Source: Acidimicrobiia bacterium
GTDB taxonomy: Bacteria; Actinomycetota; Acidimicrobiia; Spongiisociales; ZC4RG35
DNA: 64,000 nt
Assembly (NCBI GenBank): GCA_041744375.1
Contig: JBGTLA010000095.1
Location: 131,018 to 195,017, forward strand
Direction: 5' to 3'
Below, in pieces: positions 13,836 through 28,731 of this stretch (the stretch's first letter is position 1; each line of letters begins with the position of its first letter). The notes under the pieces were generated by a model, which had not been told where the DNA came from, made no database searches, and saw only the letters and a program-made list of their open reading frames with translations. The translations under genes and the position numbers were made by a program.

Positions 13836-13861
13836 CGGCGCCCGCCAGTAGCGTTCCCCCC

Positions 13862-15199: not shown

Positions 15200-15367
15200 G
15201 CACGGTGGACTCCACCCCGATCCCGACGACCACCCCCCACCCAGCCCGATCAGCTTCCGGATCCTCGTCGGGTTGGCAGTGCTGTACCTGGGATGGCGCC
15301 TCGTGGAAGGCATCATCTGGCTGGTGAACCGCTTCGCTTGATTCGACAAGCCGTGATCAGGTCGCGT

Positions 15368-15928: not shown

Positions 15929-16085
15929 GCGCCTGCCACGCTACACGAACCATGTTCGGCCACCACGCGGGGATCGGGGCAACCCGGGGTTGCCGGTTTC
16001 ATAGATCCCCAATCGTGAGCTTCGTGGTGTATCGGGCCTGATGGCTCACTTGGGGCGGGTTGAGATTGGGAGGGCGTCGCTGGTG

Positions 16086-17543: not shown

Positions 17544-17579
17544 AGTATGGCGAGGGTGATTTGTTTCGCGACTCCGTGC

Positions 17580-18257
17580 CTAGTCGACACCCTTCCCCAC
17601 CGGGATCAGATAGAGCGGTTCCCACGTATTGGGCAATTCCAGTTGTTTCTGCACCTCACTGTCGTTGAAAGAGCCGATGGGAACGGCTGCCAGGTCCAGC
17701 TGTACCGCCTGGAGGAGGACGTTCTGGGCGGCATGACCGGCTTCGAGATGTACGTATCGCTGGGCCCGGTCGCCATATCTGCGTTCGGTGCGGGCGTACT
17801 CGGCGGCAATGACGAAGACTACCGGTGCCGAGGCGACGGCTTCCTGGCCGAAGGCGGCAGCCGCCAGATCGGCGCGGATGTCGCCGGAACGGGATCGGGC
17901 GAGAAGGTGATCCCCGGGCAGGTAATGAAAGACGCCGGTTTCCTCCACCACGAAAACTTCGAGCGGATAAGTGCCTCCCGCCGAGGGGGCGGTGCGACCC
18001 CCCGATTCTGCCGTAACGCCCTGTGCCGCCCAGAGCAACTGGCCGATCTGCTCGTCGGTGAGTCGGTCCTCTGTATACGAGCGGATGGACCGTCGTCCCG
18101 CCAGCGCCTTCCCCAGTCCGTCGCCTGTTTCCGCCGGTGGGAGCTGTCTGAACTCAGAGGCGTTCTCGAGTCCTGTGGTCGTCCGGTCGGAGCAGGCACC
18201 CACGGCGAGGAACGCCACCAGAACACTGATGAAGGCATGGCCTACAACTCCAGGCAT
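17580..18257 (-). CDS. SagB-type/nitroreductase-family lipoprotein
   Basis: Lipobox AFLAVGACSD; nitroreductase fold motifs (RRSIRSY; HLEAGHAAQNV). Start taken at MPGVVGH. Confidence 0.6.
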   Translation of the reverse strand: MPGVVGHAFISVLVAFLAVGACSDRTTTGLENASEFRQLPPAETGDGLGKALAGRRSIRSYTEDRLTDEQIGQLLWAAQGVTAESGGRTAPSAGGTYPLEVFVVEETGVFHYLPGDHLLARSRSGDIRADLAAAAFGQEAVASAPVVFVIAAEYARTERRYGDRAQRYVHLEAGHAAQNVLLQAVQLDLAAVPIGSFNDSEVQKQLELPNTWEPLYLIPVGKGVD

Positions 18258-18427
18258 CTCGTGTCGTATGTTGCAGAGCTCCATAGGCCAACACCAGGGC
18301 CGGAGGTCCATACCGAGACGGTTCGCCCATCGAGCTCGACACTCGCCCCCACTGATCACGCGTCACCCCGGCCAGTTTCCGAGGCGATAGGTGCCGCGGC
18401 CGACACCGTCTCCAGTCTGGAAGCGAC

Positions 18428-18455
18428 GAAACCCGCTCGGCGTTGAGCGGGTTTC
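18428..18455 (-). terminator. stem-loop (11-bp stem) just outside attL
   Basis: GAAACCCGCTC-ggcgtt-GAGCGGGTTTC. It is homologous to the terminator hairpin that follows the intact tRNA-Pro at 27731..27754. Confidence 0.4.
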
Positions 18456-18460
18456 TCACT

Positions 18461-18507
18461 GTCGGGCCGGGGAGATTCGAACTCCCGACCTCTTGACCCC
18501 CAGTCCA
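18461..18507 (-). repeat. partial tRNA-Pro copy (anticodon loop to 3' end) = attL of integrated element
   Basis: The minus-strand read GACUGGGGGUCAAGAGGUC-GGGAG-UUCGAAU-CUCCC-CGGCCCGAC is identical or near-identical to the 3' half of the tRNA at 27760..27834. The T-stem carries compensatory changes, and the 19-bp core GACCTCTTGACCCCCAGTC is identical. Confidence 0.7.
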
Positions 18508-18740
18508 CGAACGGCCGTCCCGACGAGTCACAGCCCGTCACACGTCGTACTCGGAATGTGGTCTCTACCTGGGGCTTTCAACTCAACCTGTCCCAGCCCG
18601 TCCAAGGTGGTCACGGCCAGTATCCGTCGTGATAGTGGAACGTTAGAGGAACGCTGACCGGGCACTGCCCGTGCCGGGCACTAGGACAAACGTCGCTCAA
18701 GGTCGGAGGGTTTCATTGCGGTGAAACCCTCCGAGCGGCC

Positions 18741-19208
18741 TTAGACGGCAATCCGGGCCAGCTCGAGGATCTCGGCCCGCTCATTGGCGCGGTGGTCACG
18801 GCAGTAGATCGCGTCAAAGTCGAGGCGAACGTCGATGGCCTTCCCGCAAGTCGGGCAGCGAGCCGTCGTCGCCATGGCGTGAGGCAGAGACATTCGGCGG
18901 TCTCGCGCCCATTCGGCGACGGCATGATGCCTGCGCCTGGCGGCAAGCTCGCCCACAGCCATGACCACCATCGCCGCCAGGTCGAGCGGCGACTCCTCCC
19001 ACAACCAGAACCGCACTTCTAGGTGAGTGAGCCCGCCGTCGACACCGGACAGCAACCGCCCGGCCGGATACTCGCGAGCCCAGGCGACCACGTCCTCAGA
19101 GGTCCGACAGTCCGCCAAACCGGCGGCGATTAGCTGAGCCTCCTCGGGACCGACCCAACGTGACACGCCTTCCTCGAAGGTCGGGGATTTGGTCATCGGT
19201 CGGGGCAT
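18741..19208 (-). CDS. hypothetical protein with C-terminal zinc-ribbon-like motif
   Basis: The C-terminal ~155 aa of track ORF 18741..19517 look protein-like (CPTCGKAIDVRLDFDAIYCRDHRANERAEIL); the N-terminal part of the track ORF is Arg/Pro-rich GC artefact. Last gene of the element operon. Confidence 0.45.
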   Translation of the reverse strand: MPRPMTKSPTFEEGVSRWVGPEEAQLIAAGLADCRTSEDVVAWAREYPAGRLLSGVDGGLTHLEVRFWLWEESPLDLAAMVVMAVGELAARRRHHAVAEWARDRRMSLPHAMATTARCPTCGKAIDVRLDFDAIYCRDHRANERAEILELARIAV

Positions 19209-19576
19209 CACGACCACCGGGCCCTGGCCGCCTTGCGCGCCCTTTCGGAGGCCGAGAGGTTGTCCCACTCCGAGACCTCGGCCTGCGCCTCGGGAAGCCT
19301 TATCCGGCTTAAGAGTTGGGCGAGGAGAGACCGCTGCAGACGCAGCTCGACGACAGCCGGGTGAGTGATCGGAGTTCCGGCCGCGTTCGTCGTGGTCAGC
19401 GGCGCAACGGCCACTTCGGCCTCGAGGCGGGCCACGAGATCGGCGGTCCGAGCGGCCTCTTCGAGCACTTTTAACTCGTCTTCGCGCCACAAATAGCCCC
19501 GTTGCAGGCGCCTCCACAACGCCTTTCCGGCCCGCCCCAACCCCAGAGGAGCCCTAAGTGGCTTGGTATCGGCCAC
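19208..19576 (-). CDS. terminase small-subunit-like protein (P27-family-like), tentative
   Basis: 122 aa; the pattern ...KALWRRLQRGYLWREDELKVLEEAARTADLVARLEAEV...THPAVVELRLQRSLLAQLL resembles P27-family TerS. Position matches the terS slot of PICI packaging modules. Confidence 0.45.
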   Translation of the reverse strand: MADTKPLRAPLGLGRAGKALWRRLQRGYLWREDELKVLEEAARTADLVARLEAEVAVAPLTTTNAAGTPITHPAVVELRLQRSLLAQLLSRIRLPEAQAEVSEWDNLSASERARKAARARWS

Positions 19577-19692
19577 TCAGGGCTCCCGAATCCGTGGCTG
19601 GATGCCACCAGGCAGAGCCAGGAATGGTATCCCACTGACCCGGGCCGACCCGGGGGGTGGGGGTCTCCCCCAGGTCGGTGGGGGTGGCATGG

Positions 19693-20523
19693 TCACTGCC
19701 GGGCCGCCTCCATCTCGCGGGTCCGTATCTCGAGGTCGAGGCGGTCACGCCGGTTGTCCTCGTGACCCTTGTGCTTTTGCTCCTGCGTTTGCCGTGACCG
19801 TGTGCGACTGGCGGCGGCGGTTGCGGTGGCCTCGGCCTCGCTGGGGGTGGCGAGGTGGAGCCGGAAGCCGGCCTCGATGAGGGCCAGCCATTTGCGGCCC
19901 AGGTGGGCGGCCCGGTCTAGGTCGTCTTGGGTGAGGTCCTTGCCCGTGATCCACCAGGTTGGCGATTCCTCCCGCGGACCGAACCGATACGTTTCGGCGA
20001 GCGAGGAACGTACTCGGGCGATGGCGGTGAGCTCGGCGGTGGCGGTGGCCCGACGGGTGTGGGTGTCGGTGAGGGTGGGGTCGGCGAGGGTGTGGCGGGC
20101 TCGGGTGGGGAGGGCGACCCCGGTGGTGGCTGCCAGGTCGTCGGCGGCGGTGGCGAAGCGGGGCTGTAGTTCAGAGATGATGGCGTCGCCGTGGTCTCGG
20201 ACCGCTCGGGCGGTGGCCTTGGACAAGGCGGCGACAACCTGGCGGTGGATTGCCTCAGCGGCTTCCTTTGCCGTCTGGGCGCGAGCCGTATCGAGGAATC
20301 GGTCAGCGGCGTCGTCGGGCTCGAGGGTCCCGTCGATGATGGCGGCGGCGAGGTCCTCAGCGGGCGAGACGGCGCTGGCCGCGGAGATGGCGGCTGAGAT
20401 CTTGGCGAGCCGGTCAAGGCCGGGCACCTCGATGTCGAGGTCGTCGAAAGTGGCGAGGGCACGGGCGGGGTCGATCGGGTGGAACATGAGTGGCCTTTCA
20501 GAATCGGTTGCGGGGGATGCCAA
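19693..20523 (-). CDS. hypothetical protein (element accessory gene)
   Basis: 276 aa with ordinary amino-acid composition and a coiled-coil C-terminus; follows the 108-aa gene in the same operon. Confidence 0.5.
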   Translation of the reverse strand: MASPATDSERPLMFHPIDPARALATFDDLDIEVPGLDRLAKISAAISAASAVSPAEDLAAAIIDGTLEPDDAADRFLDTARAQTAKEAAEAIHRQVVAALSKATARAVRDHGDAIISELQPRFATAADDLAATTGVALPTRARHTLADPTLTDTHTRRATATAELTAIARVRSSLAETYRFGPREESPTWWITGKDLTQDDLDRAAHLGRKWLALIEAGFRLHLATPSEAEATATAAASRTRSRQTQEQKHKGHEDNRRDRLDLEIRTREMEAARQ

Positions 20524-20824
20524 GTTTTTCGTGGATGGCTCGTTCGAGTGGGTCGCCGTTGAGCGCTAGCGCCGGCGGTTCGGATCCTGATCGGAGCGGG
20601 GGTGATGGTGCCTGTGTTTCCTCGTCGTACCTTTCGGGGCCTGGCCTCGGTGGGACCTTGGCGGCGAGGAGGGCAGCGAGCCCGTCGCTCGCTGGGGCGA
20701 AGGTGGCGGCGAGTTCGTCGGCCTCCTCAACGGTTTCCGCTAGGTGCCTGAGGCTGGCGGCTTCGGGGAGACCGAGGCCGTGCCGGTGGGCGATCTCAGC
20801 GGCCTCTATTGCAGTGATTCCCAT
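20498..20824 (-). CDS. hypothetical small protein
   Basis: Only the C-terminal 108 aa (from MGITAIEAAEI...) of track ORF 20498..21388 look genuine; the upstream part is Pro/Arg/Ser low-complexity. Confidence 0.4.
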   Translation of the reverse strand: MGITAIEAAEIAHRHGLGLPEAASLRHLAETVEEADELAATFAPASDGLAALLAAKVPPRPGPERYDEETQAPSPPLRSGSEPPALALNGDPLERAIHEKLGIPRNRF

Positions 20825-21201
20825 ACGGTCCTCTTCTCGACGAAGGTGTCCAAGTCTGTGCGTCGGATCATCACCCTTCGCCCCACCCGTACCTCGGGGA
20901 GGCTCCCGTTTCGGCGGAGGCGGTCGAGGTGGGAGGTCGAAACCCCCAGCACCTCGGCCGCTATCCGTCGGCTTAGGAGCATGGCGATGCCACTTGCACC
21001 ATCTTGGGGGACTTCGTTGGTCTCGGCTCTGGTCTGAGGAGCCGTGACGACTGAGGCCGACTCCTGATGACGAAGAGCCCGGATCAGTTGTGCCAGTTCG
21101 GTGGTGGGTGGGTGGCCTCGGGCGAGTCGGTCTGAGGCACCGTGGAGCAGCGTCTCCACCATCTCGGCTCGGAGGCGGTCGCTCACGTCGAGGAGGATCA
21201 C
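20806..21201 (-). CDS. helix-turn-helix DNA-binding protein (excisionase/MerR-like HTH)
   Basis: C-terminal HTH MLLSRRIAAEVLGVSTSHLDRLRRNGSLPEVRVGRRVMIRRTDLDTFVE. The GTG start is GTGA-coupled to the upstream 71-aa gene; a shorter product from the ATG at 20982 is possible. Confidence 0.5.
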   Translation of the reverse strand: MILLDVSDRLRAEMVETLLHGASDRLARGHPPTTELAQLIRALRHQESASVVTAPQTRAETNEVPQDGASGIAMLLSRRIAAEVLGVSTSHLDRLRRNGSLPEVRVGRRVMIRRTDLDTFVEKRTVWESLQ

Positions 21202-21413
21202 AACGGCCGCCAGATGGACTCTTCGCCTTGGGCGGCGACCAGGGCATCCCAGAACGCTTGGCGATGCTCCTCACGTGAGGGGATGGTGGCGTGGCGTCTG
21301 CGCCGGCCGTTGCCGTTGGGACCACCATTTGCGCAGAAGTGGTAGAGCTCGATGACATGCGGCGGGACGTTGTGCCACTCTCGGCCACATGCTGGGCAAT
21401 GGCGGGAGGTCAT
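21198..21413 (-). CDS. small zinc-ribbon protein, first gene after the iteron region
   Basis: MTSRHCPACGREWHNVPPHVIELYHFCANGG... (71 aa). Its stop is translationally coupled to the next gene. Confidence 0.4.
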   Translation of the reverse strand: MTSRHCPACGREWHNVPPHVIELYHFCANGGPNGNGRRRRHATIPSREEHRQAFWDALVAAQGEESIWRPL

Positions 21414-21713
21414 ATCAGGGGACACGGTTGGGACACAGTTCTCTTTTTTCAGCTTCGATGGCGGCACCGATGCGGGGCACCGTGTCCCGTGTCCCTCCTT
21501 AGAGAGGGGGAGGGACACGGTTGAACACGGCTATGTCCCATGACCGTGTCCCTGCTTGGGACACGGTTGGGACACGGGGGACACGGTTGCTGTTTCGTGC
21601 TTGGTTGCTGCGTTTCCGGTTGGTTGGTTGGGACACGGTTGGGACACGGTTTCGGCGGGTGGCTGGTAATTCGGTTTTTTCCGACACGGTGTCGTGTCCC
21701 TGGTCGGGACACG
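21414..21713. repeat. iteron array, putative replication origin of the element
   Basis: At least 12 copies of GGGACACGG(TTG) in both orientations (e.g. 21419, 21476, 21509, 21535, 21558-21589, 21630-21652, 21682-21710), interspersed with AT-richer tracts. Located immediately 3' of the helicase gene. Confidence 0.6.
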
Positions 21714-22790
21714 CTATTTCCCATCATCTTCCAGCCCTTCGCTCTTCTCGATGAAGGTCTCGTAACCCTTGTCGGTGAGGTAGTGGGCGTGGGCTGAGCC
21801 TTGCTTCTCCATGCGGACATACCCGTCTGTGATCATGGCGGCGATGGCCGAGTCGATGAGTTCGCCCTTGCCGCCGGCGTCTCGGATGGATCGTTTCGAT
21901 GATCCGGGCGCGCCGTCGAGGTATTGGGCGATGCGTTGGCGGACTCCGTAGTCGTTGGCGACGGCGTCGGTGGTCACTTGGTAGGTGACGCCGCCGTCGG
22001 GCCACGCGGTGAGTTTGACGGTGGCGGCCAGGTCGCCGGGTGAGTGACCGCGGACGTAGCCGGGCCGATCTTTGGCGACTCGCACCGAGACGATTCCCTC
22101 GACGGGGTCTCCGAGGTAGGCGCGGTGCACCTTGCGTATCGCGGTGACGTCGTAGGAGGCGCCGTCGGTGCCGGCCTTCTTGTGCTGCGATCCGATCGCC
22201 CACCCTTTGCGCCCTTCGGTGGATTTGGTCTGGTGGTCGATCACCGCGACGGCTGGGCCGGTAGCGGCGATCAGTTTGGGGATCCTGCGAATCCACTCGG
22301 CGGTGTCGGGTGTCGAGTTGGGGTCGAGATCTTCGATATTCATCGACTCGGACACTCCGTCGACCACGACCAGGGCCGGCTTGGTGGCGTCGAGAGCCTC
22401 GAACAGCTCGGCGCGCTGGTCGTCGCCTAGCGTTTCGTCGGGGCGCATGTAGACGAAGCGATTGGGGTCGGTGATGACCTCCTCGGGGACACCCAACGCC
22501 TGCAGGCGGGATTTGATGGAAGCCGGATGGTCCTCGAAATCGACATACGCGCAGTTGCCGCCGTCCAAAAGAATCTGCGCCACGGCGATGAGGAGGACCC
22601 ACGTCTTGTGCGATTCGGACTCACCCTGGAACCAGTGGACCCGCCCGGGGTAGATGAGCCCGACGTCGTCCACCCGCATGAAGATGGTGGCTTCCTCGAC
22701 GGTCATCCCGACGAGGGACATGTCGATTGGTGTCCAGGTGGTCTCCGGTGGGGCGGTGCGAGCCTCGTCGTCGAGGGGTGGCACCGTCAT
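21714..22790 (-). CDS. RepA/DnaB-like AAA_25 ATPase (replicative helicase-like)
   Basis: RecA-fold ATPase with Walker-A-like GESESHKTW (the Gly before Lys is replaced by His) and a Walker B (LVVVDGVSE); ATGA-coupled to Prim-Pol. Confidence 0.6.
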   Translation of the reverse strand: MTVPPLDDEARTAPPETTWTPIDMSLVGMTVEEATIFMRVDDVGLIYPGRVHWFQGESESHKTWVLLIAVAQILLDGGNCAYVDFEDHPASIKSRLQALGVPEEVITDPNRFVYMRPDETLGDDQRAELFEALDATKPALVVVDGVSESMNIEDLDPNSTPDTAEWIRRIPKLIAATGPAVAVIDHQTKSTEGRKGWAIGSQHKKAGTDGASYDVTAIRKVHRAYLGDPVEGIVSVRVAKDRPGYVRGHSPGDLAATVKLTAWPDGGVTYQVTTDAVANDYGVRQRIAQYLDGAPGSSKRSIRDAGGKGELIDSAIAAMITDGYVRMEKQGSAHAHYLTDKGYETFIEKSEGLEDDGK

Positions 22791-23647
22791 GCCCGCCTCC
22801 TTAGGTCTCGGCTGTCTCTGAGCGCCTTGGCGGCTGCAGAGAGATCGCCGTCATGTTCGAGGACAGCCCAAGCCCGAAACCGCGTGTAGCCGACCGGGCG
22901 GTCCGGTTCGGTGACCTCAAAAGCAGTGTTCGTGGAGTAGACGAAGAGACAGTCGTGGCGGACGGTGGCCGAGATCGGTGCGGTGGCGGTGGGGTGCCGC
23001 CACTTCTCGCCGGCATGGTCGACCGCGACCCATCCGAAAGGCTCGAGAACCTCGCGCCAAGTGGTCGAAGCTGTGAAAGCGTCCGCTGGCGAATCTCCGT
23101 CTATGGCCCACTGTCTCGGCTTCGGCCGCTTTGGCGGCGGCGGTGGAGCGAGCAAGAGCTGGAGCCGGAGCGGAGCCTCGCCTATGGGGATGCGCGGGTC
23201 GACCCAGGTGTACGGTCGGGCGCTATCGGGATGAATCGAGGGCGGCAGCACGACGTAGCCGGAATGCGTCTTCACGTCGACGCCGCGTGGGAGACGCCTT
23301 GTGTAGATGTTGCCGCCAGGATGCCGCCAGTAGTAATGGCGGCCACCATCACCACGACCCGACAGGGCGGTGAGCGTGTCCGGGAGCTCCCCTACTGCAT
23401 CAATGAGATCTCTGCCGACCGCGGGGTTGGTTCGTGGATCTGTGTCAAGAACGAAACACCCCGCGGGGACCCGGCCGCCGATGTTGGCGTTTGGGTATCG
23501 CTTCCACCATGTGGCGATGACATCGAGATCGGTGGTGGCGTCGAGGACACCGTTACCGCCGTTCCGCTTCGGGATAGCGGGCACTTTCCCGCGGAGCGGG
23601 AAAATCTCCCATCCTTTTCGGGCGTAGTCGAGAGCGTGGTCGATCAT
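22787..23647 (-). CDS. bifunctional DNA primase/polymerase (Prim-Pol) domain protein
   Basis: The N-terminus ALDYARKGWEIFPLRGKVPAIPKRNGG...LDATTDLDVIATWW...NANIGGRVPAGCFVLDTD matches the Prim-Pol N-terminal domain; start at MIDHAL (ATG ~23647). Confidence 0.7.
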   Translation of the reverse strand: MIDHALDYARKGWEIFPLRGKVPAIPKRNGGNGVLDATTDLDVIATWWKRYPNANIGGRVPAGCFVLDTDPRTNPAVGRDLIDAVGELPDTLTALSGRGDGGRHYYWRHPGGNIYTRRLPRGVDVKTHSGYVVLPPSIHPDSARPYTWVDPRIPIGEAPLRLQLLLAPPPPPKRPKPRQWAIDGDSPADAFTASTTWREVLEPFGWVAVDHAGEKWRHPTATAPISATVRHDCLFVYSTNTAFEVTEPDRPVGYTRFRAWAVLEHDGDLSAAAKALRDSRDLRRRA

Positions 23648-24006
23648 TTCAACCTCTGCCAAACCTGATTGAGCGCCTGGCTTGCTCGGCCGTTTCCGCC
23701 GGCGTCGGGATGCCACACTCTCTGAAGCGCCTTCCACGTCGCAGCGCGTATCTCGGCCGGGATTCGCGAGAACACGATCTCCAGCGCATCCTCAAGCGGA
23801 CCGTCGACGACCCCGTTGAGTCGGTCGACCAGACGTTGAACGTCCTCCGCGAATCGGAAAGGCACCCGCCAGCATTTCAGGCCAGGGTCCCACCTCGCCG
23901 CGGGCATGGCCTTGGCGTGGTCCTTGTCCTCAAACGCCACCCACAGACCAATATCACCGTCGCCGAGGTTCCTGAACGTGGCAGGACGCCGATTAGAGTG
24001 CGTCAT
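23644..24006 (-). CDS. DUF5710-like N-terminal domain fused to a C-terminal J-domain (HPD motif)
   Basis: N-terminus: LWVAFEDKDHAKAMPAARWDPGLKCWRVP. C-terminus: ATWKALQRVWHPDAGGNGRASQALNQVWQRL, i.e. J-domain helix II plus the HPD motif. Confidence 0.5.
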   Translation of the reverse strand: MTHSNRRPATFRNLGDGDIGLWVAFEDKDHAKAMPAARWDPGLKCWRVPFRFAEDVQRLVDRLNGVVDGPLEDALEIVFSRIPAEIRAATWKALQRVWHPDAGGNGRASQALNQVWQRLK

Positions 24007-24157
24007 GTCGTCGTCCTGTGAGCAGCTTGAGGGCGACTGGTGGCACCGTGCCCGCCCGCGGTGCGAACGGTGGAGGGGCCCGCTTCGGCGGGCTCCTCGT
24101 CTTGTAGACCAAGCACGGCCAGGAGCGGGGCGCGTGGGGTGATCGTGGTGGTGGTCA

Positions 24158-25078
24158 TCACGCCACCTCCCCGGAGATCAACTTCCGGATATCACCGAGG
24201 ATGGTCTTCTCGGACTCCTCTGCGGCGAGAGTGGAGTTCCACATCTCGGGGTCGTCGACAAGATCGAGAAGTGCCTGTTTCAACCGTTCCCGCAGGATCG
24301 GTGCAGGCAACGCCTCAACTTCAACGGCTTGTGGGACCAGTCCCTCTAATCGGCAATGGGCCAGGAATTTGGCGTAGTTGACGTCGTTCTTGTTGAGATC
24401 GTGGCTGACGAGATCGCCTTGGCGCACGTCATCGGGGGTGATCGCCACCCGGACGAACTCGATGTCGACCAGGTCCTTCGAGTAGCGGCGTAGACGTTCC
24501 TCCAGGGACCGAGCAATCGCCAACCCCGATGGGTCCCAATCACCTACGTAGAGGATGGTGACGGGCTTCCCGATGGTCTTGTACGCCACCGCCGCGTTGT
24601 AGGCGAAGGTCTTGGGAGCTTGGCCTTTGCATGGGAAGAGACCGATCCCGTAAGGGCGTGTGATCGGGTCGAGGACGCCAGCGATGGAATCGGACTCGCA
24701 CCACACTTCTACTCGCCGGGGTTGAGACGCCCACAGGTTTCGCCGGTACGACTCCTGCCAGCGAGCGAACGCGTCCTCGATGTCCTCGTACATGGTGTCG
24801 ATGCGGACGGACCGAGACGAGTCGGTGATCCAACCCCAGGGCAGAACTTCGTCTTCGCGGAGCTTCCCTAGCTCCCGGCAGACCATCTTGTAGTTGCGTC
24901 GCTTCGTCGCGCCAGTGTCCTTGGCCCACAGCACGGCGATACCGGAGTAATAGACGTGGCGGACGTTGCACGGCTGATTGCGTTCCACCAGCTCGTAGAT
25001 GGCATCCCGGAAGTGGGCCATCTCGGCCTTGGTCCGTCGAGCAGACGGCGGATTCTGAGACGTAGAACTAGCGGGCAT
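24158..25078 (-). CDS. Spo11/TopoVI-A-like protein (putative CAP-domain tyrosine + Toprim E...DxD)
   Basis: Putative catalytic Tyr motif NVRHVYYSG. Toprim acidic residues VWCESDS and ILYVGDWDPSG are spaced ~87 and ~65 aa apart, matching TopVIA/JetD-type spacing. 306 aa. Confidence 0.45.
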   Translation of the reverse strand: MPASSTSQNPPSARRTKAEMAHFRDAIYELVERNQPCNVRHVYYSGIAVLWAKDTGATKRRNYKMVCRELGKLREDEVLPWGWITDSSRSVRIDTMYEDIEDAFARWQESYRRNLWASQPRRVEVWCESDSIAGVLDPITRPYGIGLFPCKGQAPKTFAYNAAVAYKTIGKPVTILYVGDWDPSGLAIARSLEERLRRYSKDLVDIEFVRVAITPDDVRQGDLVSHDLNKNDVNYAKFLAHCRLEGLVPQAVEVEALPAPILRERLKQALLDLVDDPEMWNSTLAAEESEKTILGDIRKLISGEVA

Positions 25079-25268
25079 CTACGGACTCCTCCTCCGATTC
25101 GATCCCCAGCACGTCGAAAAGACGAGCACGCGAGAGGAGCAGGCGACGGCCGACCTTGATCACCGGGACGCCGGCCAGGTCGCCGGACTGGGCCTCGGCG
25201 TAGGCGGTGTTGCGGCTGACACCGAGCAGGAGGGCGGCTTCGGGGATTGTGATGGTGGCGGACGTCAT
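25068..25268 (-). CDS. excisionase-like HTH protein (Xis/AlpA-like)
   Basis: 66 aa: ITIPEAALLLGVSRNTAYAEAQSGDLAGVPVIKVGRRLLLSRARL. Confidence 0.6.
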   Translation of the reverse strand: MTSATITIPEAALLLGVSRNTAYAEAQSGDLAGVPVIKVGRRLLLSRARLFDVLGIESEEESVDAR

Positions 25269-25271
25269 TGC

Positions 25272-25505
25272 TCACTGACCCCCTTCGGTCACGAGGCGCC
25301 GTAGGTCCGCTAGGGCTTGGGCGTAGGCGCTGCGAACCCGGCCGGAGGGGTTGCGGTCTCCCGTTTCCCACTTGGCGACGGCTTGGCGGGTGACGCCTAC
25401 GACGTCGGCTACGTCTTGGAGAGTGAGTCCGGCTGCCACGCGCAGAGCTCGCCGCGCTGCGGGGGGCGGAAGGCGCTTCGCATTGGCGATAGTCTCGACA
25501 TCCAT
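25272..25505 (-). CDS. XRE-family HTH transcriptional regulator
   Basis: LTLQDVADVVGVTRQAVAKWETG, the canonical XRE HTH; divergent from the + strand regulator/int operon. Confidence 0.65.
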   Translation of the reverse strand: MDVETIANAKRLPPPAARRALRVAAGLTLQDVADVVGVTRQAVAKWETGDRNPSGRVRSAYAQALADLRRLVTEGGQ

Positions 25506-25570
25506 CTGGTGACATCTTGGCGACAATCTGCTACCTTGGCAACGTCACAAATAACGAATTGAGGAGACAG

Positions 25571-26128
25571 GTGGCGCAGCAAAATAACCCCGAGGGCGGA
25601 TGGTCCCTGAAGGTCAACTTCAAGATGGCGTTTCCGGACCCATTCATCATCCATCGGGGCATGGTCTATCCAAGGGTCCTGTCGGCGATGTGGCGGCGAG
25701 AAGATGGGCTCCAGCTCGACATCGACATCGAGGTGGAGGCTGAGGCTGGGGCGAGAGTTCGGCGCTTCACAGTCACAGGTGCCGACATGATTGACTCGGC
25801 GGACTTTCGGCAGCCGGTTCAGTCGATGGCGAAGCGAGCGGTCGCAGCGATGGCGGCGGAGCCCGATGGGCTTGGCAATGCGACGTTCCCACCGTCTCAG
25901 CCGGCGTCGGTGGTGGTTGGCCGGGTGACGAGCCGTACTAATGACGCTCGGCTAACGCGGGTTGCCGACCTTTATGGGCAGGCTCTCAGCGACGGGGAGC
26001 CAGTGACCTCGTTGATCGAAAAGGAGGAACACGTGAGCCAGTCAACGGCGTATGGACTGATATCGCGGGCGCGTAAGGCGGGATTCCTCCCGCCATCGAG
26101 ACCAGGAAGGAAGGCGACAAGCGAATGA
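25571..26128 (+). CDS. putative regulator co-transcribed with int (Stl-like position)
   Basis: GTG start with a GAGGAG RBS; C-terminal HTH-like segment HVSQSTAYGLISRARKAGFL; its stop overlaps the int start (ATGA). Confidence 0.45.
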   Translation: MAQQNNPEGGWSLKVNFKMAFPDPFIIHRGMVYPRVLSAMWRREDGLQLDIDIEVEAEAGARVRRFTVTGADMIDSADFRQPVQSMAKRAVAAMAAEPDGLGNATFPPSQPASVVVGRVTSRTNDARLTRVADLYGQALSDGEPVTSLIEKEEHVSQSTAYGLISRARKAGFLPPSRPGRKATSE

Positions 26129-27309
26129 GCGACAAGCGTCGACCCAGAGGAACCGGATCGGTTCGGGAGTGGAACGGTCGTGTGCAAGCCCGTTACACGT
26201 TCTTTGATGCACAGGGGCATCGACGCGAACGATCGAAGCTCTTCGACACCAGGACAGAGGCCCGTGGTTGGCTCACAGATCGCCTTGCGGAGGTCGCAGG
26301 CGGTTCTGTGGCCGATGCCAGGTCGATCACCCTAGGCGAGTACCTGGGTCACTGGCTGGGCAGCCTGGGAATGGCACAACTCGAAGCGGCGACATTGTCG
26401 TGGTACCGCTCCGCGGTGGAGCGTCACATCGTCCCTCAGATCGGCCACGTCCGCCTTGACAGGATCACGCCGGTGATGGTGGAGGCGTTCCTATCGGAGC
26501 GGGCCTCGAGCGGCCGGCTGCGGCGACCAGGCGACGACGAGACAACCCCGAAGGGGCTCGGGCCGTCCAGTGTCCGACGTCTCACCGTGACCTTGCATAA
26601 GGCACTTGACGCGGCCGTGCGCAAGGGAATGCTGGCCCGGAACCCGGTCGACTCCGCTGACAAACCCAAGATGCCCGCCTCAGACGTGACTCTCGACGTG
26701 TGGGCACCCGACGAGATAGCAGCGTTCCTTCAGGCGACAAGACAGCATCGCTTGGCGGCCGTCTGGCGTACAGCGGCCATGACCGGGCTGAGACGGTCGG
26801 AGGTGTGCGGACTCCAATGGGGCGACCTCGACCTAGAGACCGGACGCCTATCGGTCCGGCGTGCGATCGTCTCAGTGGATGGTCGGCCTCATGTGAAGCC
26901 ACCGAAGACAGCGAAGTCTCGACGTACGGTCGAGCTTGACGCCGGGACCGTGGCGATACTGCGGGAGTGGCGGAAGTCACAGCTCGAGGAACGGCTGCGA
27001 GCTGGGGAGGTGTGGGAAGCGGGGGAGTGGGTCGTGGCCGACGAGCTAGGCCGGTTCCTCCGTCCCGATCATGTGGGACGCCTGTTCTCCCGTCTGGTCG
27101 CCTCAGCGGGGCTCAGGCCGATCACGTTCCGCAAGTTGCGCCACAGTCATGCCACGGCGCTCCTGGTGGCCGGCGAGGCTCCCAAGGTCGTGCAGGAAAG
27201 GCTCGGGCACGCTTCGATCACGATGACGATGGACATCTACTCGGCAGTCCTGCCCAATATGCAACGAGACGCAGTCGAACGGTTGGCGTCGATGATGGAG
27301 GCCCAGTAG
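26125..27309 (+). CDS. int: tyrosine-type site-specific integrase
   Basis: N-terminal SAM-like domain and a C-terminal catalytic domain (LRHSHATALLVAGEAPKVVQERLGHASITMTMDIYSAVLP). Transcribed toward the tRNA-Pro 3' end. Confidence 0.9.
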   Translation: MSDKRRPRGTGSVREWNGRVQARYTFFDAQGHRRERSKLFDTRTEARGWLTDRLAEVAGGSVADARSITLGEYLGHWLGSLGMAQLEAATLSWYRSAVERHIVPQIGHVRLDRITPVMVEAFLSERASSGRLRRPGDDETTPKGLGPSSVRRLTVTLHKALDAAVRKGMLARNPVDSADKPKMPASDVTLDVWAPDEIAAFLQATRQHRLAAVWRTAAMTGLRRSEVCGLQWGDLDLETGRLSVRRAIVSVDGRPHVKPPKTAKSRRTVELDAGTVAILREWRKSQLEERLRAGEVWEAGEWVVADELGRFLRPDHVGRLFSRLVASAGLRPITFRKLRHSHATALLVAGEAPKVVQERLGHASITMTMDIYSAVLPNMQRDAVERLASMMEAQ

Positions 27310-27701
27310 TGAAGCGCAGAGACGACTTAGATCCAGAGCTCGAAGAACTAGCCCGGACGCTTGAACGGTTCGACGGTGTGACGGTCCAGGGTGGTCGCCT
27401 CGACAATGCCGAATGGTCGGTCATGTTCGCTGCGGCGGTCGAGGATGGTCGCCCCACCGTGGCAGCGTGGCACGGCGTTGAGTTCGTGGCCTGGGCCGTT
27501 CGGGATTTTCGGCTTGCTGGTGAGGGTGACGTGAGCCTGGTGGTCTCGGCCATCCCGCCCATGTTGAACGAGCCGGGCTATGGGGTGACGTTCTTTCTGT
27601 CCGCTCGGCGCTCGTCGAGCCACGAGCGAGTGAATGCGGAGGCGTTTGCCCTGGGGCTCAGCGCTCATGCGGCTGAAAGGGGCTTGATAGTGGAATCTTA
27701 G
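27309..27701 (+). CDS. hypothetical protein between int and attR
   Basis: GTG start overlapping the int TAG stop; 130 aa with no recognisable domain. Confidence 0.35.
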   Translation: MKRRDDLDPELEELARTLERFDGVTVQGGRLDNAEWSVMFAAAVEDGRPTVAAWHGVEFVAWAVRDFRLAGEGDVSLVVSAIPPMLNEPGYGVTFFLSARRSSSHERVNAEAFALGLSAHAAERGLIVES

Positions 27702-27730
27702 AGGAACGGCCCTGGCGGCCACGACCAGGC

Positions 27731-27754
27731 TCCGATGCAGAAACCCCGCTACGG
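27731..27754 (-). terminator. rho-independent terminator-like hairpin after tRNA-Pro
   Basis: GAAACCCCGC-uacg-GCGGGGUUUC followed by a U-rich tail on the minus-strand transcript. Confidence 0.45.
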
Positions 27755-27759
27755 CGGGG

Positions 27760-27834
27760 TTTCTGCCGGTCGGGCCGGCGGGATTCGAACCCACGACCTC
27801 TTGACCCCCAGTCAAGCGCGCTACCAAGCTGCGC
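27760..27834 (-). tRNA. tRNA-Pro (anticodon GGG)
   Basis: Hand-folded cloverleaf: acceptor CGGGCCG/CGGCCCG; D-arm GCGC-AGCUUGGUA-GCGC; anticodon arm CUUGA-CUGGGGG-UCAAG (U33, GGG, G37); variable loop AGGUC; T-arm GUGGG-UUCGAAU-CCCGC; discriminator A; CC encoded. Confidence 0.85.
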
Positions 27835-27919
27835 CACGGCCCGTGTCGGGGGTATCGTAGCGGTTCGCCCGGCGGCTGTGTTGACGGCGGCCCGGGCGGT
27901 ACCCCGCCCACGGAGGCTC

Positions 27920-28588
27920 ATGCGCCGGACCATCGCTGTCATCTGTCTCCTGACAATGGTCGGCTGTGCCAACGGGGAGGCAGTCGAGCCGGCACCGACC
28001 TCGGGTACGACCGAGGTTGTGACGACAGAGCCACCCACCACCACGTCGATCACCCCGCAACCCACAACCACGACCACAGCGCCTTCGACCGGATCCCCTA
28101 CCACCGGAGACGACTCTGGCATCACCTCGTGTGTGGTGGGGGAGTGGGAACTCGACACCGGAGAGTTCGAAGCCCAGGTGGAGACGTTCTACGACGATGC
28201 CGGTATGTCCTCGGACGTGTCGATCACTGGGGGGCGTGTCCTTCTGCATCTCGAAGCGGGCGGGTTGTTCGTCGGTGGTTATGACGAGTTGATGGTCGAC
28301 GTGAGCCTCGGCGATGCCCTTCCGGATCTCACCGTCACCTTCGGTGGGGTGGTTTCGGGCGAGTACTCGGTAGACGGGGATTCTCTCGTCCTCGTCCCCG
28401 ACGATCAATCCACCTTTGCGGCCACCGTCGAGGTTGGGGGTGTGTCGGTGTCACCGGCCGGTGAGCTCGGATTGGGCGACGTCGACCTCTTCACCGAGAG
28501 CGTGTCGGACGTAGTCTGCGAGAACGGTCTTCTCAGGATCGAACCCGCCGCCGGACTGGGCCCTGCTTCGGTGTGGAGGCGGCGGTGA
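27920..28588 (+). CDS. lipoprotein with Thr/Pro-rich linker
   Basis: GGAGG RBS; signal peptide with lipobox (LLTMVGC); low-complexity TTTTS/PT linker; C-terminal domain of unknown function. Confidence 0.6.
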   Translation: MRRTIAVICLLTMVGCANGEAVEPAPTSGTTEVVTTEPPTTTSITPQPTTTTTAPSTGSPTTGDDSGITSCVVGEWELDTGEFEAQVETFYDDAGMSSDVSITGGRVLLHLEAGGLFVGGYDELMVDVSLGDALPDLTVTFGGVVSGEYSVDGDSLVLVPDDQSTFAATVEVGGVSVSPAGELGLGDVDLFTESVSDVVCENGLLRIEPAAGLGPASVWRRR

Positions 28589-28731
28589 CCATGGGAGGGG
28601 GCGGATAGAGACGGGCTGCCGGAAATCGGAGCTGTCCAAGGCAGTGCCCCATGGGTTGGGCCGGCGATGTATCTCTGGAGGCCCTCTCATTCCCCGGGGT
28701 CGAGTGCCGGCGCCGGAGGTAGGCTTGGGAG

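Follow-up and report, generated by a model that had tools for sequence, protein, structure and literature searches.

Boundaries and integration site

The window, i.e., the whole 64-kb stretch of DNA analysed, contains an element of 9,308 bp, measured core to core, located between two copies of a 20-bp core in a tRNA-Pro(GGG) gene. Its ends are marked by the following features:

18428-18455, minus strand: terminator hairpin native to tRNA-Pro (-20.8 kcal/mol, z -5.0), separated from it by the insertion and lying in the chromosome immediately beyond the end of the element
18461-18505, minus strand: attL, the displaced native 3' half of tRNA-Pro, with the 20-bp crossover core at 18486-18505
18631-18653, plus strand: arm-type repeat GATAGTGGAAcgTTAGAGGAACG, a candidate P'-side arm site for Int
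27686-27708, plus strand: arm-type repeat GATAGTGGAAtcTTAGAGGAACG, a candidate P-side arm site for Int
27737-27766, minus strand: element-borne terminator hairpin (-29.1 kcal/mol, z -6.4), now terminating the tRNA
27768-27843, minus strand: tRNA-Pro(GGG), its 3' part up to the core (27768-27793) element-derived; attR core at 27794-27813

The coordinates confirm the preliminary description of this DNA, in which insertion at tRNA-Pro(GGG) and a far end made of a diverged duplicate of the tRNA 3' half plus terminator were proposed. The 45-nt copy in attL is 41/45 identical to positions 27769-27813 (E 4e-11), with four compensatory mismatches in the T-stem; the 20-bp core is the same in both copies, and a strong hairpin follows each of them. 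The distal copy is the native tail of the tRNA and, joined to the 5' half, gives a valid tRNA-Pro. An empty site in the strict sense was not found in a close relative; the reconstructed uninterrupted tRNA-Pro sequence is present exactly in 91 metagenome contigs, some of them with a similar terminator, e.g., L170, in which the sequence following the intact tRNA resembles the native hairpin (91% over 78 nt). Integrases 26-37% identical to that of the element adjoin the same tRNA in 12 metagenome contigs. The pattern of the 23-bp arm-type repeat occurs exactly twice in the 64 kb, with no occurrence expected, both times just inside an att site and in the same orientation. The GC content of the element equals that of its flanks, the host lineage is a singleton in databases, and two independent read assemblies contain no sign of an excised circle.

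Gene content

The element carries 16 genes, not 18 as counted earlier, and all ORFs are intact, with no frameshifts or stops. The operons are tightly coupled by overlaps of 1-26 nt and interrupted only twice, by the iterons and by the stretch ahead of terS. Proceeding from the tRNA, the features are:

27309-27701, plus strand: orf130, its start overlapping the int stop; independent gene call, coding-like GC3
26125-27309, plus strand: int, tyrosine integrase transcribed toward the tRNA; PF00589 at 2e-24
25571-26128, plus strand: orf185, candidate master repressor co-transcribed with int, 4-nt overlap with the int start
25506-25570, unstranded: 65-bp divergent control region with repeated CTTGGCRAC half-sites, by direct sequence reading
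25272-25505, minus strand: regulator of the XRE family (Cro/Str-like), heading the leftward operon; PF01381 at 5e-12, start (77 aa) from an independent gene call
25068-25268, minus strand: HTH_17 protein, 66 aa, probable excisionase/AlpA-type regulator; PF12728 at 1e-8
24158-25078, minus strand: Mini-A-type stand-alone type IIB topoisomerase A-subunit homolog (5Y-CAP + Toprim); phrog_6247 at 1e-36
24003-24161, minus strand: orf51, small coupled ORF called in an independent assembly, overlapping junctions
23644-24006, minus strand: DUF5710 protein with a C-terminal HPD-containing helix pair (putative J-like motif); PF18974 at 1.7e-6
22787-23647, minus strand: Prim-Pol primase-polymerase, 286 aa; PF09250 at 8e-36, start as in an independent gene call, overlapping each neighbour by 4 nt
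21714-22790, minus strand: AAA_25 (RepA/DnaB-like) helicase, its C-terminal tail resembling a winged helix and its Walker A deviant (GESESHKT); PF13481 at 7e-13
21419-21714, unstranded: iteron array, probably the replication origin; CCGTGTCCC/GGGACACGG is present 13 times, 10 of them exact, in either orientation and separated by A-rich spacers
21198-21413, minus strand: orf71, a small CxxC protein resembling a zinc ribbon, encoded immediately beyond the repeat array; sub-threshold Zn-ribbon matches only
20806-21201, minus strand: second HTH_17 (AlpA/Xis/MerR-type) DNA-binding protein, 131 aa; PF12728 at 2e-11
20498-20824, minus strand: orf108, overlapping genes on both sides; GC3 and junction analysis
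19693-20487, minus strand: orf264, helical, Ala-rich; a 276-aa ORF in the preliminary description, the database call starting at M13
19577-19692, minus strand: 116-bp non-coding gap with palindrome GGGGGAGACCCCC (19659-19671), candidate cos/pac or TerS-binding site
19208-19576, minus strand: terS, homolog of small terminases of the P27/HK97 type, not followed by a TerL gene; phrog_1496 at 6e-17
18741-19217, minus strand: orf158 with a Cys-rich C-terminus (CxxC...CxxH), its start overlapping the end of terS by 10 nt; the gene is also called in L003, an independent assembly
18703-18734, minus strand: terminator hairpin closing the distal operon after orf158 (-22.8 kcal/mol, z -5.05)

The reported arrangement of int next to a putative repressor, opposite a divergent XRE regulator followed by Xis-like HTH genes, is confirmed, with Pfam matches for int, the XRE gene, and both HTH_17 genes. 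The candidate repressor orf185 has a weak C-terminal HTH, matching only HTH_28 (E 0.18) and DUF6214 (E 0.028); in L044 (HTH_23, E 0.0023), L095 and L088 (both weak HTH_3), and L187 (no family match), the place next to int is likewise taken by a small gene. The second HTH_17 protein matches phrog_66, 'excisionase and transcriptional regulator'. A sigma-70 consensus scan of the divergent control region yielded nothing, and orf130 has no family match. Both orf130 and the 23-bp arm-type repeat had previously been overlooked.

Within the replication module, Prim-Pol and the AAA_25 helicase were recognized correctly from the outset. The latter is 39-42% identical to ATPases of small actinobacterial replicons, and 39% identical to that of a Streptomyces 7.9-kb replicon carrying FtsK/SpoIIIE and DUF2637; no canonical Walker A ATPase is encoded in the element. 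Directly 3' of the helicase stop codon, as also noted earlier, lie the 9-bp iterons, comprising all 10 exact CCGTGTCCC copies of the 64-kb window and three one-mismatch copies. Repeat arrays at or after rep are also found in L095, L093, and L090.

The Spo11/TopoVI-A-like Toprim identity first assigned to the Mini-A product is borne out by its AF2 model (pLDDT 82.6), the top fold matches of which are Topo VI-A (probability 1.0), and by the conserved motifs R40-x-x-Y43-Y44, E128, D180xD182xxG185, and VEVEAL. Mini-A, described in PMC7671362, is a phage/provirus-associated family, with homologs in 75 phage records. Of the proposed DUF5710-J-domain gene the DUF5710 part stands, but the J-domain is unsupported: there is no DnaJ match at E<=10 in Pfam and no PDB match, and the resemblance consists of an HPD motif and 12 of 42 residues matching locally in the J-domain of E. 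coli DnaJ.

The distal genes are six in number, as previously stated, but instead of a single translationally coupled series they form two groups, of four and two genes, split by the 116-bp gap. The start of orf71 was shifted downstream because a longer ORF would run through the repeats. While orf108 has no family match, orf264, with no annotation from Pfam, PHROG, or PDB, belongs to a family of 75 representatives of similar length, members of which lie near terS in L004, L089, and L090 and beside Mini-A in L039. For orf158, an assignment as HNH is not supported, the matches being a weak HNH PHROG (E 0.006) and a sub-threshold DUF7575 only, with no PDB match. No recognisable capsid-size or interference gene is present in the element.

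The earlier statement that capsid, tail, portal, lysis, and conjugation genes are missing proved correct: nothing similar to TerL, portal, capsid, TMP, or FtsK was detected in the 64-kb window, nor were tail, lysis, or Tra genes, and the element itself contains no Tra, Spd, GntR, or Nudix genes.

terS and the upstream palindrome

The terS-like (P27-type) gene is likewise confirmed. A profile search gathered 608 relatives, with PF05119 matched by 28 of the 45 aligned members, and the AF2 model (pLDDT 85.5) has as its top BFVD matches the TerS of Mycobacterium, Corynebacterium, and Gordonia phages and as its top PDB match HK97 TerS. Judged by the PHROG match, by PF05119 in its relatives, and by the predicted fold, the product is a genuine TerS homolog. 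Its closest relatives of known context reside in TerL-less islands (L004, 52%; L190, 50%) and in phages with TerL directly after terS (L191, 46%; L091, 40%; L192, 33%). In a tree built on about 125 columns, the window copy and three TerL-linked phage copies are separated from three copies of tra+ AICEs by a bipartition with 82-84% bootstrap. A tblastn search with terS against 50,697 phage records gave no match, and no homolog was found in 72,556 PLSDB plasmids. Whereas in the phages TerL follows directly, in the element terS is succeeded by a small gene, a terminator, and attL, with no truncated TerL.

The palindrome 95 nt upstream of terS belongs to the class GGGGG-N3-CCCCC, of which it is the single representative in the element. 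The pattern was defined post hoc, after viewing the data. Of 15 loci, 7 have it ahead of terS at a distance of 66-144 nt, approximately 34-fold over background; all three phages are among them, and the HNH-bearing L044 and L088 have the palindrome too. It can be considered a candidate cos/pac or TerS-binding site.

Related islands

TerL-less and Tra-less islands with the same order, int - HTH_17 - replicase - terS, are recurrent (L093, L095, L044, L043, and L040), and the one in L093 is fully delimited by chromosomal genes. Further genes of phage origin are present in some relatives: L044 has HNH, and L044, L085, and L089 encode TMP-like proteins. L093 carries M78 and DUF4411 as cargo after terS. 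P27-type terS genes are also found in L088, L089, and L090; of these, L089 and L090 keep the order seen in the window for AAA_25 (35% identity for the L089 gene), a gene resembling orf264, and terS, with an FtsK-like ATPase in addition. L187 is a single 14.3-kb AICE in tRNA-Thr, bounded by 44-bp repeats, in which int, HTH_17, Prim-Pol, and terS are combined with GntR, a TraB-like 664-aa protein, a TraA-like protein, and DUF2637.

Nature of the element

The best explanation of this comparative sequence evidence, with roughly an even chance of being right, is that the element is an intact, helper-dependent integrative replicon, a PICI-like phage satellite that relies on AICE-type functions for integration and replication. 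This reading is partly supported. A phage link is favoured by the predicted TerS fold, the terS bipartition, the common palindrome, and Mini-A; the intact boundaries, the coupled operons, the origin-like array, the missing virion and transfer genes, and the recurrent islands of like gene order also speak for the satellite. Against it, the part devoted to integration and replication is no less typical of AICEs, and the helicase family serves FtsK-type replicons. The preliminary description was right about the anatomy, with terS as the only packaging gene and no structural or Tra genes, but its reading of this anatomy as the signature of a satellite rather than of an AICE was too strong, because AICEs share int, xis, Prim-Pol, and the rep repeats, and terS occurs inside the L187 AICE. 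Nor do terS and the palindrome alone imply satellite status, since P27-type terS is present in L187, L088, L089, and L090, and the palindrome in L088.

While quiescent, the element occupies tRNA-Pro(GGG), restoring the 3' end of the tRNA and providing its own terminator. The opposition of the orf185-int-orf130 operon and the divergent XRE-led operon suggests a switch of the repressor/Cro type, in which a helper signal would derepress the leftward operon. The Xis/AlpA-type HTH_17 protein together with Int would then excise the element at the 20-bp core by way of the 23-bp arm repeats, and Prim-Pol and the AAA_25 helicase would fire the 13-iteron origin, with Mini-A and the DUF5710 protein as putative accessory factors of DNA topology or replication. 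TerS may bind at or near the GGGGG-N3-CCCCC site and recruit the helper TerL (and HNH, if the helper needs one), so that helper capsids would take up element DNA in multimeric form, or small capsids would be made by remodelling; the remodelling or an interference role may fall to orf264 and orf158. After injection, Int would re-integrate the element at tRNA-Pro. No helper phage was identified, the most likely being a temperate or virulent HK97-like (P27-TerS, cos-type) actinophage.

Alternatively, the element could be a Tra-less AICE derivative, its FtsK/TraB-Spd module lost or never acquired, which persists by integration and occasional replication. The TraB of a co-resident AICE or plasmid may mobilise it in trans, with the 9-bp array possibly acting like clt, and the TerS homolog would have a DNA-binding or regulatory role unrelated to capsids. 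Repeats recognized by TraB of the pSVH1 type are the basis of the clt idea. This explanation is unlikely. In its favour, the defining features of AICEs include an int gene located upstream of attP, xis, replication proteins of the Prim-Pol type, and, where rep ends (3'), arrays of identical 8-bp repeats (PMC2440964), the helicase is roughly 40% identical to the ATPase of the Streptomyces FtsK/SpoIIIE replicon, L187 unites terS with transfer genes inside one att-bounded element, and L089 and L090 add an FtsK-like ATPase to the shared gene order. Against it, the element contains none of the Tra, Spd, GntR, and Nudix genes, its terS groups with phage and not with AICE copies, and the tra+ relative L090 also has an array at rep, favouring an origin over clt; moreover, terS is missing from the PLSDB plasmids, and the AICE literature searched contains no mention of a terminase.

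Rather improbable is a non-mobile remnant, i.e., a piece of an AICE, satellite, or prophage in decay, with some genes still intact but the capacity for excision and transfer lost. The missing excised form, the singleton host lineage, and a GC content compatible with long residence would fit such a remnant; however, the att copies, arm repeats, three terminators, 13 iterons, and 16 overlapping ORFs are all intact, no truncated TerL lies between terS and attL, and independent islands have the same compact design.

Satellites and islands often carry defence genes, and the Toprim DxD region gives a weak JetD-like PADLOC match (E 0.001), while L093 has M78 and DUF4411 after terS; nevertheless, it is very improbable that this is a resident accessory or defence island, selected for cargo such as Mini-A or DUF5710 acting against phage or plasmid DNA and only incidentally mobile, as no complete known defence system was detected and Mini-A, which lies in the replication operon between xis and Prim-Pol, overlapping both neighbours, and recurs beside replicases in other islands, thus appears to have a role in the element's own DNA metabolism.

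Comparison with known systems

The view that phage satellites are barely described in high-GC Actinobacteria was overstated: PICI-type elements are predicted by SatelliteFinder in 66% of Mycobacterium genomes and also in Rhodococcus, and MiniFlayer/MulchRoom, Ando, and EPIPs are isolated actinobacterial satellites. With AICEs the element in tRNA-Pro(GGG) shares the int/xis/Prim-Pol/repeat backbone, but not the FtsK/TraB transfer genes, whereas with PICIs, by SatelliteFinder criteria, it shares four of the five core functions and has no forbidden genes.

Gene Content of the Element

Gene calling guided by GC3, separate calls made on Logan contigs of identical sequence and inspection of the junctions put the number of genes in the element at 16. 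It can be considered a candidate capsid-less, TerS-only satellite, in which a small terminase gene (terS) of the HK97/P27 type is placed on a backbone of the type found in the integrative and conjugative elements of actinomycetes (AICEs). It is rare, its proteins forming singleton clusters. The features referred to below are the following:

18461-18505, attL, distal copy of the tRNA 3' half
18741-19217, minus strand, orf158
19208-19576, minus strand, terS
19659-19671, palindrome upstream of terS
19693-20487, minus strand, orf264
21419-21714, iteron array
21714-22790, minus strand, AAA_25 helicase
24158-25078, minus strand, 306-aa Toprim protein (Mini-A)
25571-26128, plus strand, orf185
27309-27701, plus strand, orf130
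27768-27843, minus strand, tRNA-Pro(GGG), with the attR core at 27794-27813

The rightward operon, directed toward the tRNA, consists of orf185, the tyrosine integrase gene (PF00589) and orf130; the GTG start of the latter, an ORF with no family assignment that was missing from the preliminary description, overlaps the int stop. The leftward operon begins with the XRE regulator gene, followed by HTH_17, the 306-aa Toprim protein, orf51, the DUF5710 protein, Prim-Pol and the AAA_25 helicase; after a 300-bp gap come orf71, a second HTH_17 gene, orf108 and orf264, and after a further gap of 116 bp terS, orf158, a terminator hairpin and attL. All junctions other than these two gaps overlap by 1-26 nt.

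Replication is represented by the element's own Prim-Pol and AAA_25 genes and by the iteron array which had been described 3' of the helicase gene and was found there in 13 copies. Exact copies of CCGTGTCCC number 10 in the 64-kb window, and all of them are in the 300-bp gap, together with three copies that have one mismatch; the copies occur in both orientations and are separated by A-rich spacers. Origin activity is predicted. Repeat arrays at rep are also present in a Tra-positive relative, L090, which favours a replication origin over a clt-type transfer site for this 9-bp array. No ORF of the element has a canonical Walker A motif. That of the helicase is deviant, GESESHKT (residues ~55-62, window 22620-22650), with His replacing the usual Gly before Lys.

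The regulation module comprises two HTH_17 (PF12728) genes, the divergently read XRE gene, and orf185, which lies upstream of int in the same direction and for which the repressor function suggested earlier is plausible by position only. A small gene occupies the equivalent position beside int in four related elements (L044, L095, L088 and L187), in three of them with weak HTH signals.

Pfam and PHROG scans of all ORFs, together with tblastn using phage TerL, portal, capsid and tape-measure (TMP) sequences, yielded no ORF matching TerL, portal, capsid, tape measure, lysis or FtsK/Tra proteins in the element or in the rest of the 64-kb window. The earlier statement that capsid, tail, portal, lysis and conjugation genes are missing is thereby upheld, and neither genes nor remnants for virion structure, TerL or lysis point to a complete or defective prophage. 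An NCBIfam scan of the element gave no match, and scans for sigma-70 promoters and U-tract terminators were not informative. Pfam, PHROGs, NCBIfam, PADLOC and PDB offer no annotation for the products of orf264, orf158, orf108 and orf71; for orf264, searches of Pfam, of PHROGs with 45 family members and of PDB with a profile returned a single match, to apolipoprotein, which was rejected as spurious. Also rejected were orf158 as an HNH protein (one PHROG match at E 0.006, no HNH motif, no PDB match) and the J-domain previously assigned to the DUF5710 gene, which goes no further than an HPD motif and a weak local match, with no Pfam or PDB support.

Integration Site and Flanks

The tRNA-Pro(GGG) gene at 27768-27843 (minus strand) is the only tRNA gene of the window according to ARAGORN and Rfam. 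Its 3' 45 nt are repeated at 18461-18505 with 41 of 45 positions identical (E 4e-11). The four differences are paired changes that leave the T-stem intact, and the terminal 20 nt, CGACCTCTTGACCCCCAGTC, are the same in both copies and form the crossover core; from core end to core end the element measures 9,308 bp. Each copy is followed by a strong hairpin, the two being different in sequence and comparable in strength (z -6.4 and -5.0). The duplicated tRNA 3' half with its terminator, noted previously at the far end, is therefore real, its extent being 45 nt. Exactly two occurrences of the 23-bp motif GATAGTGGAANNTTAGAGGAACG are present in 64 kb, against none expected; they have the same orientation and each is placed a little inward of an att site, as arm-type integrase sites should be. 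The integration module of a PICI is thus represented by a PF00589 integrase, a 20-bp core within the 45-nt tRNA repeat and arm-type repeats.

Joined to the distal 3' half, the 5' half of the tRNA gives a valid tRNA-Pro(GGG), and a 39-nt stretch of this reconstructed gene is uninterrupted in 91 metagenome contigs (L096-L186), in several of which a terminator resembling the distal hairpin comes next (in L170 with 91% identity over 78 nt). For these reasons the distal copy is the native tail of the tRNA, displaced by the insertion, and the 3' end and terminator now in use are supplied by the element. A strict empty site, proposed earlier as a check, was not found: the relatives with an uninterrupted tRNA are all distant, their Der proteins being 41-49% identical, and their tRNA has the opposite orientation relative to der and pgsA. 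Such loci support the native tRNA sequence and a hotspot rather than constitute a true empty site. In 12 of the 91 contigs a tyrosine integrase 26-37% identical to that of the window is encoded within ~400 bp of the same tRNA-Pro, which marks tRNA-Pro(GGG) as an integration hotspot for this integrase family. In the contigs checked (e.g. L119) int is directed away from the tRNA, opposite to its direction in the window.

Core genes make up the flanks: Der/EngA is encoded in one of them and PgsA, GcvH, an FHA protein, MerR and a D-Ala-D-Ala carboxypeptidase in the other, and their GC content does not differ from that of the element. In distant relatives (L099, L146, L136 and others) der, tRNA-Pro and pgsA-gcvH are co-directional. 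In the window (13304-18505 and 27768-29694) the tRNA runs opposite to both flanks, which points to a local rearrangement in the window's lineage. Between der and attL lies a 485-aa ORF (16086-17543, minus strand) with a strong coding signal and no Pfam family; beside it, the 17.5-18.4-kb stretch is ambiguous, with overlapping ORFs on both strands. No excised circle was detected in two Logan read assemblies, both contigs of which show integrated junctions only.

The Small Terminase Gene and Its Upstream Palindrome

The TerS protein matches phrog_1496 at 6e-17. By itself it has no Pfam match at E<=10; a profile search with it collected 608 proteins, and 28 of 45 aligned members match PF05119. 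Its AF2 model (pLDDT 85.5) matches in BFVD terminase small subunits of Mycobacterium, Corynebacterium and Gordonia phages as well as P27-family entries, the matches to phage TerS having probability 1.0 and TM up to 0.66. A PDB sequence search with the terS profile was empty; the fold search placed HK97 TerS at the top, with TM 0.51 and a weak E value. The P27-type assignment made earlier therefore holds by transitivity, through phrog_1496 and PF05119 in relatives, and by fold. The small terminase of a PICI is represented here by presence and homology, and redirection of packaging is a predicted property. The gene following terS is orf158, succeeded by the terminator and attL, with no adjacent TerL, unlike in phages L091, L191 and L192. 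By tblastn the window terS has no match in 50,697 phage records, its phage relatives having been found only through profile and IMG/VR searches, and no homolog is present among 72,556 plasmids.

Neighbour-joining bootstrap analysis of terS proteins of known context gave one bipartition, supported at 82% and 84% in two analyses, in an unrooted tree built on a short alignment of ~125 columns. It separates the window lineage, the HNH-bearing island L044 and all three phage copies from all three Tra-linked copies.

The 116-bp gap upstream of terS, the only long non-coding stretch of the distal operon, contains the 13-nt sequence GGGGGAGACCCCC (19659-19671), the element's only G4+N2-5C4+ palindrome. 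Motifs of this class are found 66-144 nt upstream of terS in seven of 15 loci, namely the window, phages L091, L191 and L192, and elements L044, L093 and L088, often with a GGGT lead-in and a C-rich tail (GGGT-GGGGG-N2-5-CCCCC). Its density upstream of terS is 2.9 sites per kb versus 0.086 per kb elsewhere in the same sequences, a ~34-fold enrichment obtained with a pattern that was spotted by eye and set after the sequences had been viewed, so that the palindrome is a lead and not a test. Ten-mers are shared upstream of terS at chance level only. We regard the palindrome as a candidate cos/pac site, its position being the one at which cos lies in HK97-type phages. Another motif, CTGAAWCGMA, is found 22-62 nt upstream of terS in L088, L187, L089, L043 and L085, that is, only in the AICE-side terS clade, and is absent from the window and the phage clade.

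Contexts of the terS Family

Members of the terS family are found in four kinds of context: phages, islands with neither TerL nor Tra, islands with extra phage-derived genes, and conjugative elements. The islands lacking TerL and Tra share the order int - HTH_17 - replicase - ... - terS. The loci compared with the element are:

L091/L092, phages, terS directly followed by TerL, then portal and capsid genes; terS 40% identical to that of the window
L191 and L192, phages, terS directly before TerL, portal and capsid genes after it; 46% and 33% terS identity
L004 and L190, islands with neither TerL nor Tra; the closest terS copies, 52% and 50%
L093/L094, island of the same kind with chromosomal genes at both limits: serine integrase, Prim-Pol/D5_N, terS, WhiB, M78 and DUF4411
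L095, island of the same kind: int with co-transcribed HTH gene, HTH_17, Prim-Pol, AAA_25, repeats in the gap after the helicase, terS; identity to the window 37% (int), 38% (Prim-Pol) and 45% (terS)
L043 and L040, further islands of the same kind
L044, island: int with co-transcribed ORF, Mini-A, TMP-like 786-aa protein, HNH, then terS
L085, island: serine integrase, Mini-A, AAA_25, terS, PhageMin_Tail protein
L187:4221-18589, a single 14.3-kb element with perfect 44-bp terminal repeats derived from tRNA-Thr(CGT): int, HTH_17, Prim-Pol, terS (PF05119), GntR, a 664-aa TraB-like membrane protein, TraA-like, DUF2637
L088, laid out as L187
L089 and L090, two copies in one genome sharing ~12 kb that include AAA_25, an orf264-like gene, terS, a TMP-like 889-aa protein and an FtsK/SpoIIIE-like ATPase

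The HNH assignment in L044 is solid (PF01844; phrog_333 at 3e-23). The 664-aa protein of L187 is 44% identical to a 667-aa Walker-A protein of L088, which resembles FtsK-like ATPases. Large tape-measure-like proteins are encoded beside terS at L044:14221-16581, L089:10799-13468 and L085:16213-19647 (phrog_1272 1e-42; phrog_305 5e-69; PF10145), in islands that are small and otherwise free of tail genes. Within the library searched, no AICE paper mentions a terminase, and no paper links AICEs with terminases or satellites.

The Mini-A Topoisomerase-Like Protein

The 306-aa Toprim protein matches PHROG 6247, 'DNA topoisomerase', at 1e-36, and R40-x-x-Y43-Y44, E128 and D180-x-D182-x-x-G185 are invariant in an alignment of 25 sequences. 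A PDB sequence search with its profile was empty; a fold search with the AF2 model (pLDDT 82.6) gave Topo VI subunit A with probability 1.0, and the initial Spo11/TopoVI-A-like assignment is confirmed. Mini-A proteins are stand-alone A-subunit homologs of ~300 aa from phages and proviruses, the function of which is not known (PMC7671362). The window protein resembles them in its length of ~300 aa, its 5Y-CAP and Toprim domains, the RxxYY and E...DxDxxG motifs and the lack of an adjacent B subunit, no GHKL domain being detected in the element by Pfam scans. Unlike the published family (PMC7671362), it has VEVEAL in the C-terminal T2BI box in place of xWELDAL; the box is conserved as [AST]VEVEA[LI], between the WELDAL signature of Mini-A and the RVELNAM signature of Topo VIII.

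Homologs were found in 75 phage records. A Mini-A homolog of Streptomyces (L086/L087:9131-10942) is located outside any island, with a LexA-like repressor and a mutasome cassette (ImuB/DnaE2) as neighbours, a setting that hints at an SOS-linked chromosomal role for the family. In L044, which also has Mini-A, the 302-aa product of the gene directly after terS (17709-18617) shows a sub-threshold GHKL/HATPase_c match (E 1e-4; phrog_3364) and may be the missing 'Mini-B' partner. The orf264 and Mini-A families also co-occur outside the window, in an Acidimicrobiia MAG (L039:10001-12362) where the orf264-family member is ~0.6 kb downstream of the Mini-A one.

Satellite or Conjugative Element

In a review, AICEs are characterised by an attP immediately downstream of int, by xis, by regulators of the XRE or GntR kind and by replication proteins of the Prim-Pol type, with identical 8-bp repeats arrayed at the rep 3' end (PMC2440964). 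The element has int, xis and an attP directly downstream of int in a tRNA gene, and a plasmid-type replication module with repeats 3' of rep. Two small actinobacterial replicons have ATPases with 39-42% identity to its helicase, and one of the two also encodes FtsK/SpoIIIE and DUF2637. On these grounds its integration and replication half belongs to a common AICE/plasmid stock, and a P27 terS does not by itself exclude conjugation, as L187 carries both. Neither Pfam nor tblastn with the Tra-like proteins from L088 and L089 revealed an FtsK/SpoIIIE-type Tra (TraB/TraSA), and without it the element does not qualify as an AICE. Pfam scans also found no Spd, GntR/Kor or Nudix gene in the element; these are present in L187 and L088.

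When the functional criteria of the SatelliteFinder paper are applied, the element has four of five PICI core components (int, regulator, pri-rep and terS) and no forbidden gene, which would make it a 'Type B' PICI. The balance is tilted toward a phage helper by the absence of Tra, Spd, GntR and Nudix genes and of plasmid terS homologs, by the terS bipartition and by the palindrome upstream of terS. The view that the architecture is that of a satellite rather than an AICE is accordingly sustained for the missing Tra functions and the phage-side terS, and weakened by the AICE-like integration and replication half and by the occurrence of terS in L187.

The reading we prefer, for which the case is about evenly balanced, is that of a helper-dependent integrative replicon packaged by means of its own TerS and a helper TerL. 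The element would be excised at the 20-bp core and replicated from the iteron origin by Prim-Pol and the AAA_25 helicase, after which its TerS, at the palindrome-bearing site, would recruit the TerL (and HNH) of a helper phage for packaging. To the observed sites, gene identities, absence of other transfer genes and relation to phage terS, this scheme would add induction, excision, replication, packaging and any capsid remodelling, as well as putative roles for Mini-A, DUF5710, orf264 and orf158. No helper phage, excised form or strict empty site was found in the data searched.

With the same integration and replication genes, the element might be a derivative of an AICE that has no Tra and is mobilised by conjugation in trans or not at all; in view of the phage-side terS this seems doubtful. 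That it is an immobile remnant is unlikely, as the att core, arm-type repeats, replication genes and terS are all present. A cargo or defence island is very unlikely, since there is no complete defence system and PADLOC gave only a local JetD-like Toprim match.

A wider reading, tentative though possible, makes the helper-dependent replicon the minimal terS-only form of an undescribed actinobacterial continuum. One HK97/P27 packaging cassette, a G5-N3-C5 site with terS, would circulate among phages, islands with neither TerL nor Tra, TMP- or HNH-bearing islands and att-bounded AICEs that have a TraB-type conjugation module as well. Were this so, AICE-type backbones would repeatedly have swapped conjugation for phage hitch-hiking or combined both, and some AICEs would be dual-route elements using conjugation and phage packaging.

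Every satellite so far isolated from Actinobacteria encodes a capsid protein or another virion protein, and the element, if packaged by a helper, would be the first PICI-style satellite lineage there to lack a capsid and to use a TerS of the HK97/P27 type. The terS family, and in one case (L088) the upstream motif too, is common to phages, Tra-less islands and a genuine AICE and thus links two transfer strategies normally kept separate; this wider pattern may matter more than the single element, the more so if the sharing of the packaging cassette proves functional. It would alter the classification of small 'cryptic' islands in antibiotic-producing and pathogenic actinomycetes. Points of entry are the 13-nt palindrome as candidate cos/pac, orf264 as the conserved partner of terS, and the position of the Mini-A gene within the replication operon.

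Comparison with Known Systems

With SaPIs and PICIs (core set in PMC10085698) the element shares its size, 9.3 kb against a PICI median of 9.5 kb; a regulatory half with int and a co-directional putative repressor, a divergent Cro/XRE-like gene and HTH genes of the xis/AlpA type; and a primase, a replicative helicase with iterons immediately 3' of it, small genes and, toward the far end, terS, with no tail, holin, portal or capsid genes. It differs from characterised PICIs in having no protein close to theirs and no recognisable capsid-morphogenesis or interference gene, and carries a TerS of the P27/HK97 (cos-phage) type and a Prim-Pol and AAA_25 pair of the actinomycete plasmid/AICE type.

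Like pMEA/pSE-type AICEs (PMC2440964) it is integrated in a tRNA gene, with attP next to int, an HTH_17 xis, Prim-Pol, repeats 3' of rep and an XRE-type regulator; its helicase family is shared with FtsK-type replicons and its P27 terS family with L187 and L088. It differs from AICEs in the absence of FtsK/SpoIIIE-type Tra, Spd, GntR/Kor and Nudix and in the phage-side position of its terS.

Phage satellites are better documented in Actinobacteria than the preliminary description held: PICI-type elements were predicted by SatelliteFinder in Mycobacterium (phiRv1/2-like) and Rhodococcus (PMC10085698), and EPIPs, Ando and MiniFlayer/MulchRoom have been isolated. Small actinobacterial 'prophages' have also been suspected in the literature of being satellites. 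The phiRv1/phiRv2-like elements of Mycobacterium are similar to the element in being predicted satellites, integrated and of ~10 kb, with a primase-type replication gene and a small terminase. Their integrases are of the serine type, and a capsid protein and a prohead protease are among their products, whereas the integrase of the window element is of the tyrosine type and structural genes are missing there. EPIPs (PMC12822802), Ando (PMC13587820) and MiniFlayer/MulchRoom (PMC10690885) are likewise small (11-13 kb) actinobacterial elements with a terminase small subunit, and depend on a helper; capsid, scaffold or connector proteins are among their products, whereas the element encodes no structural protein, and in EPIPs the integrase is of the serine instead of the tyrosine type. 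The TMP-like genes beside terS in L044, L085 and L089 recall the tape-measure gene of EPIPs.
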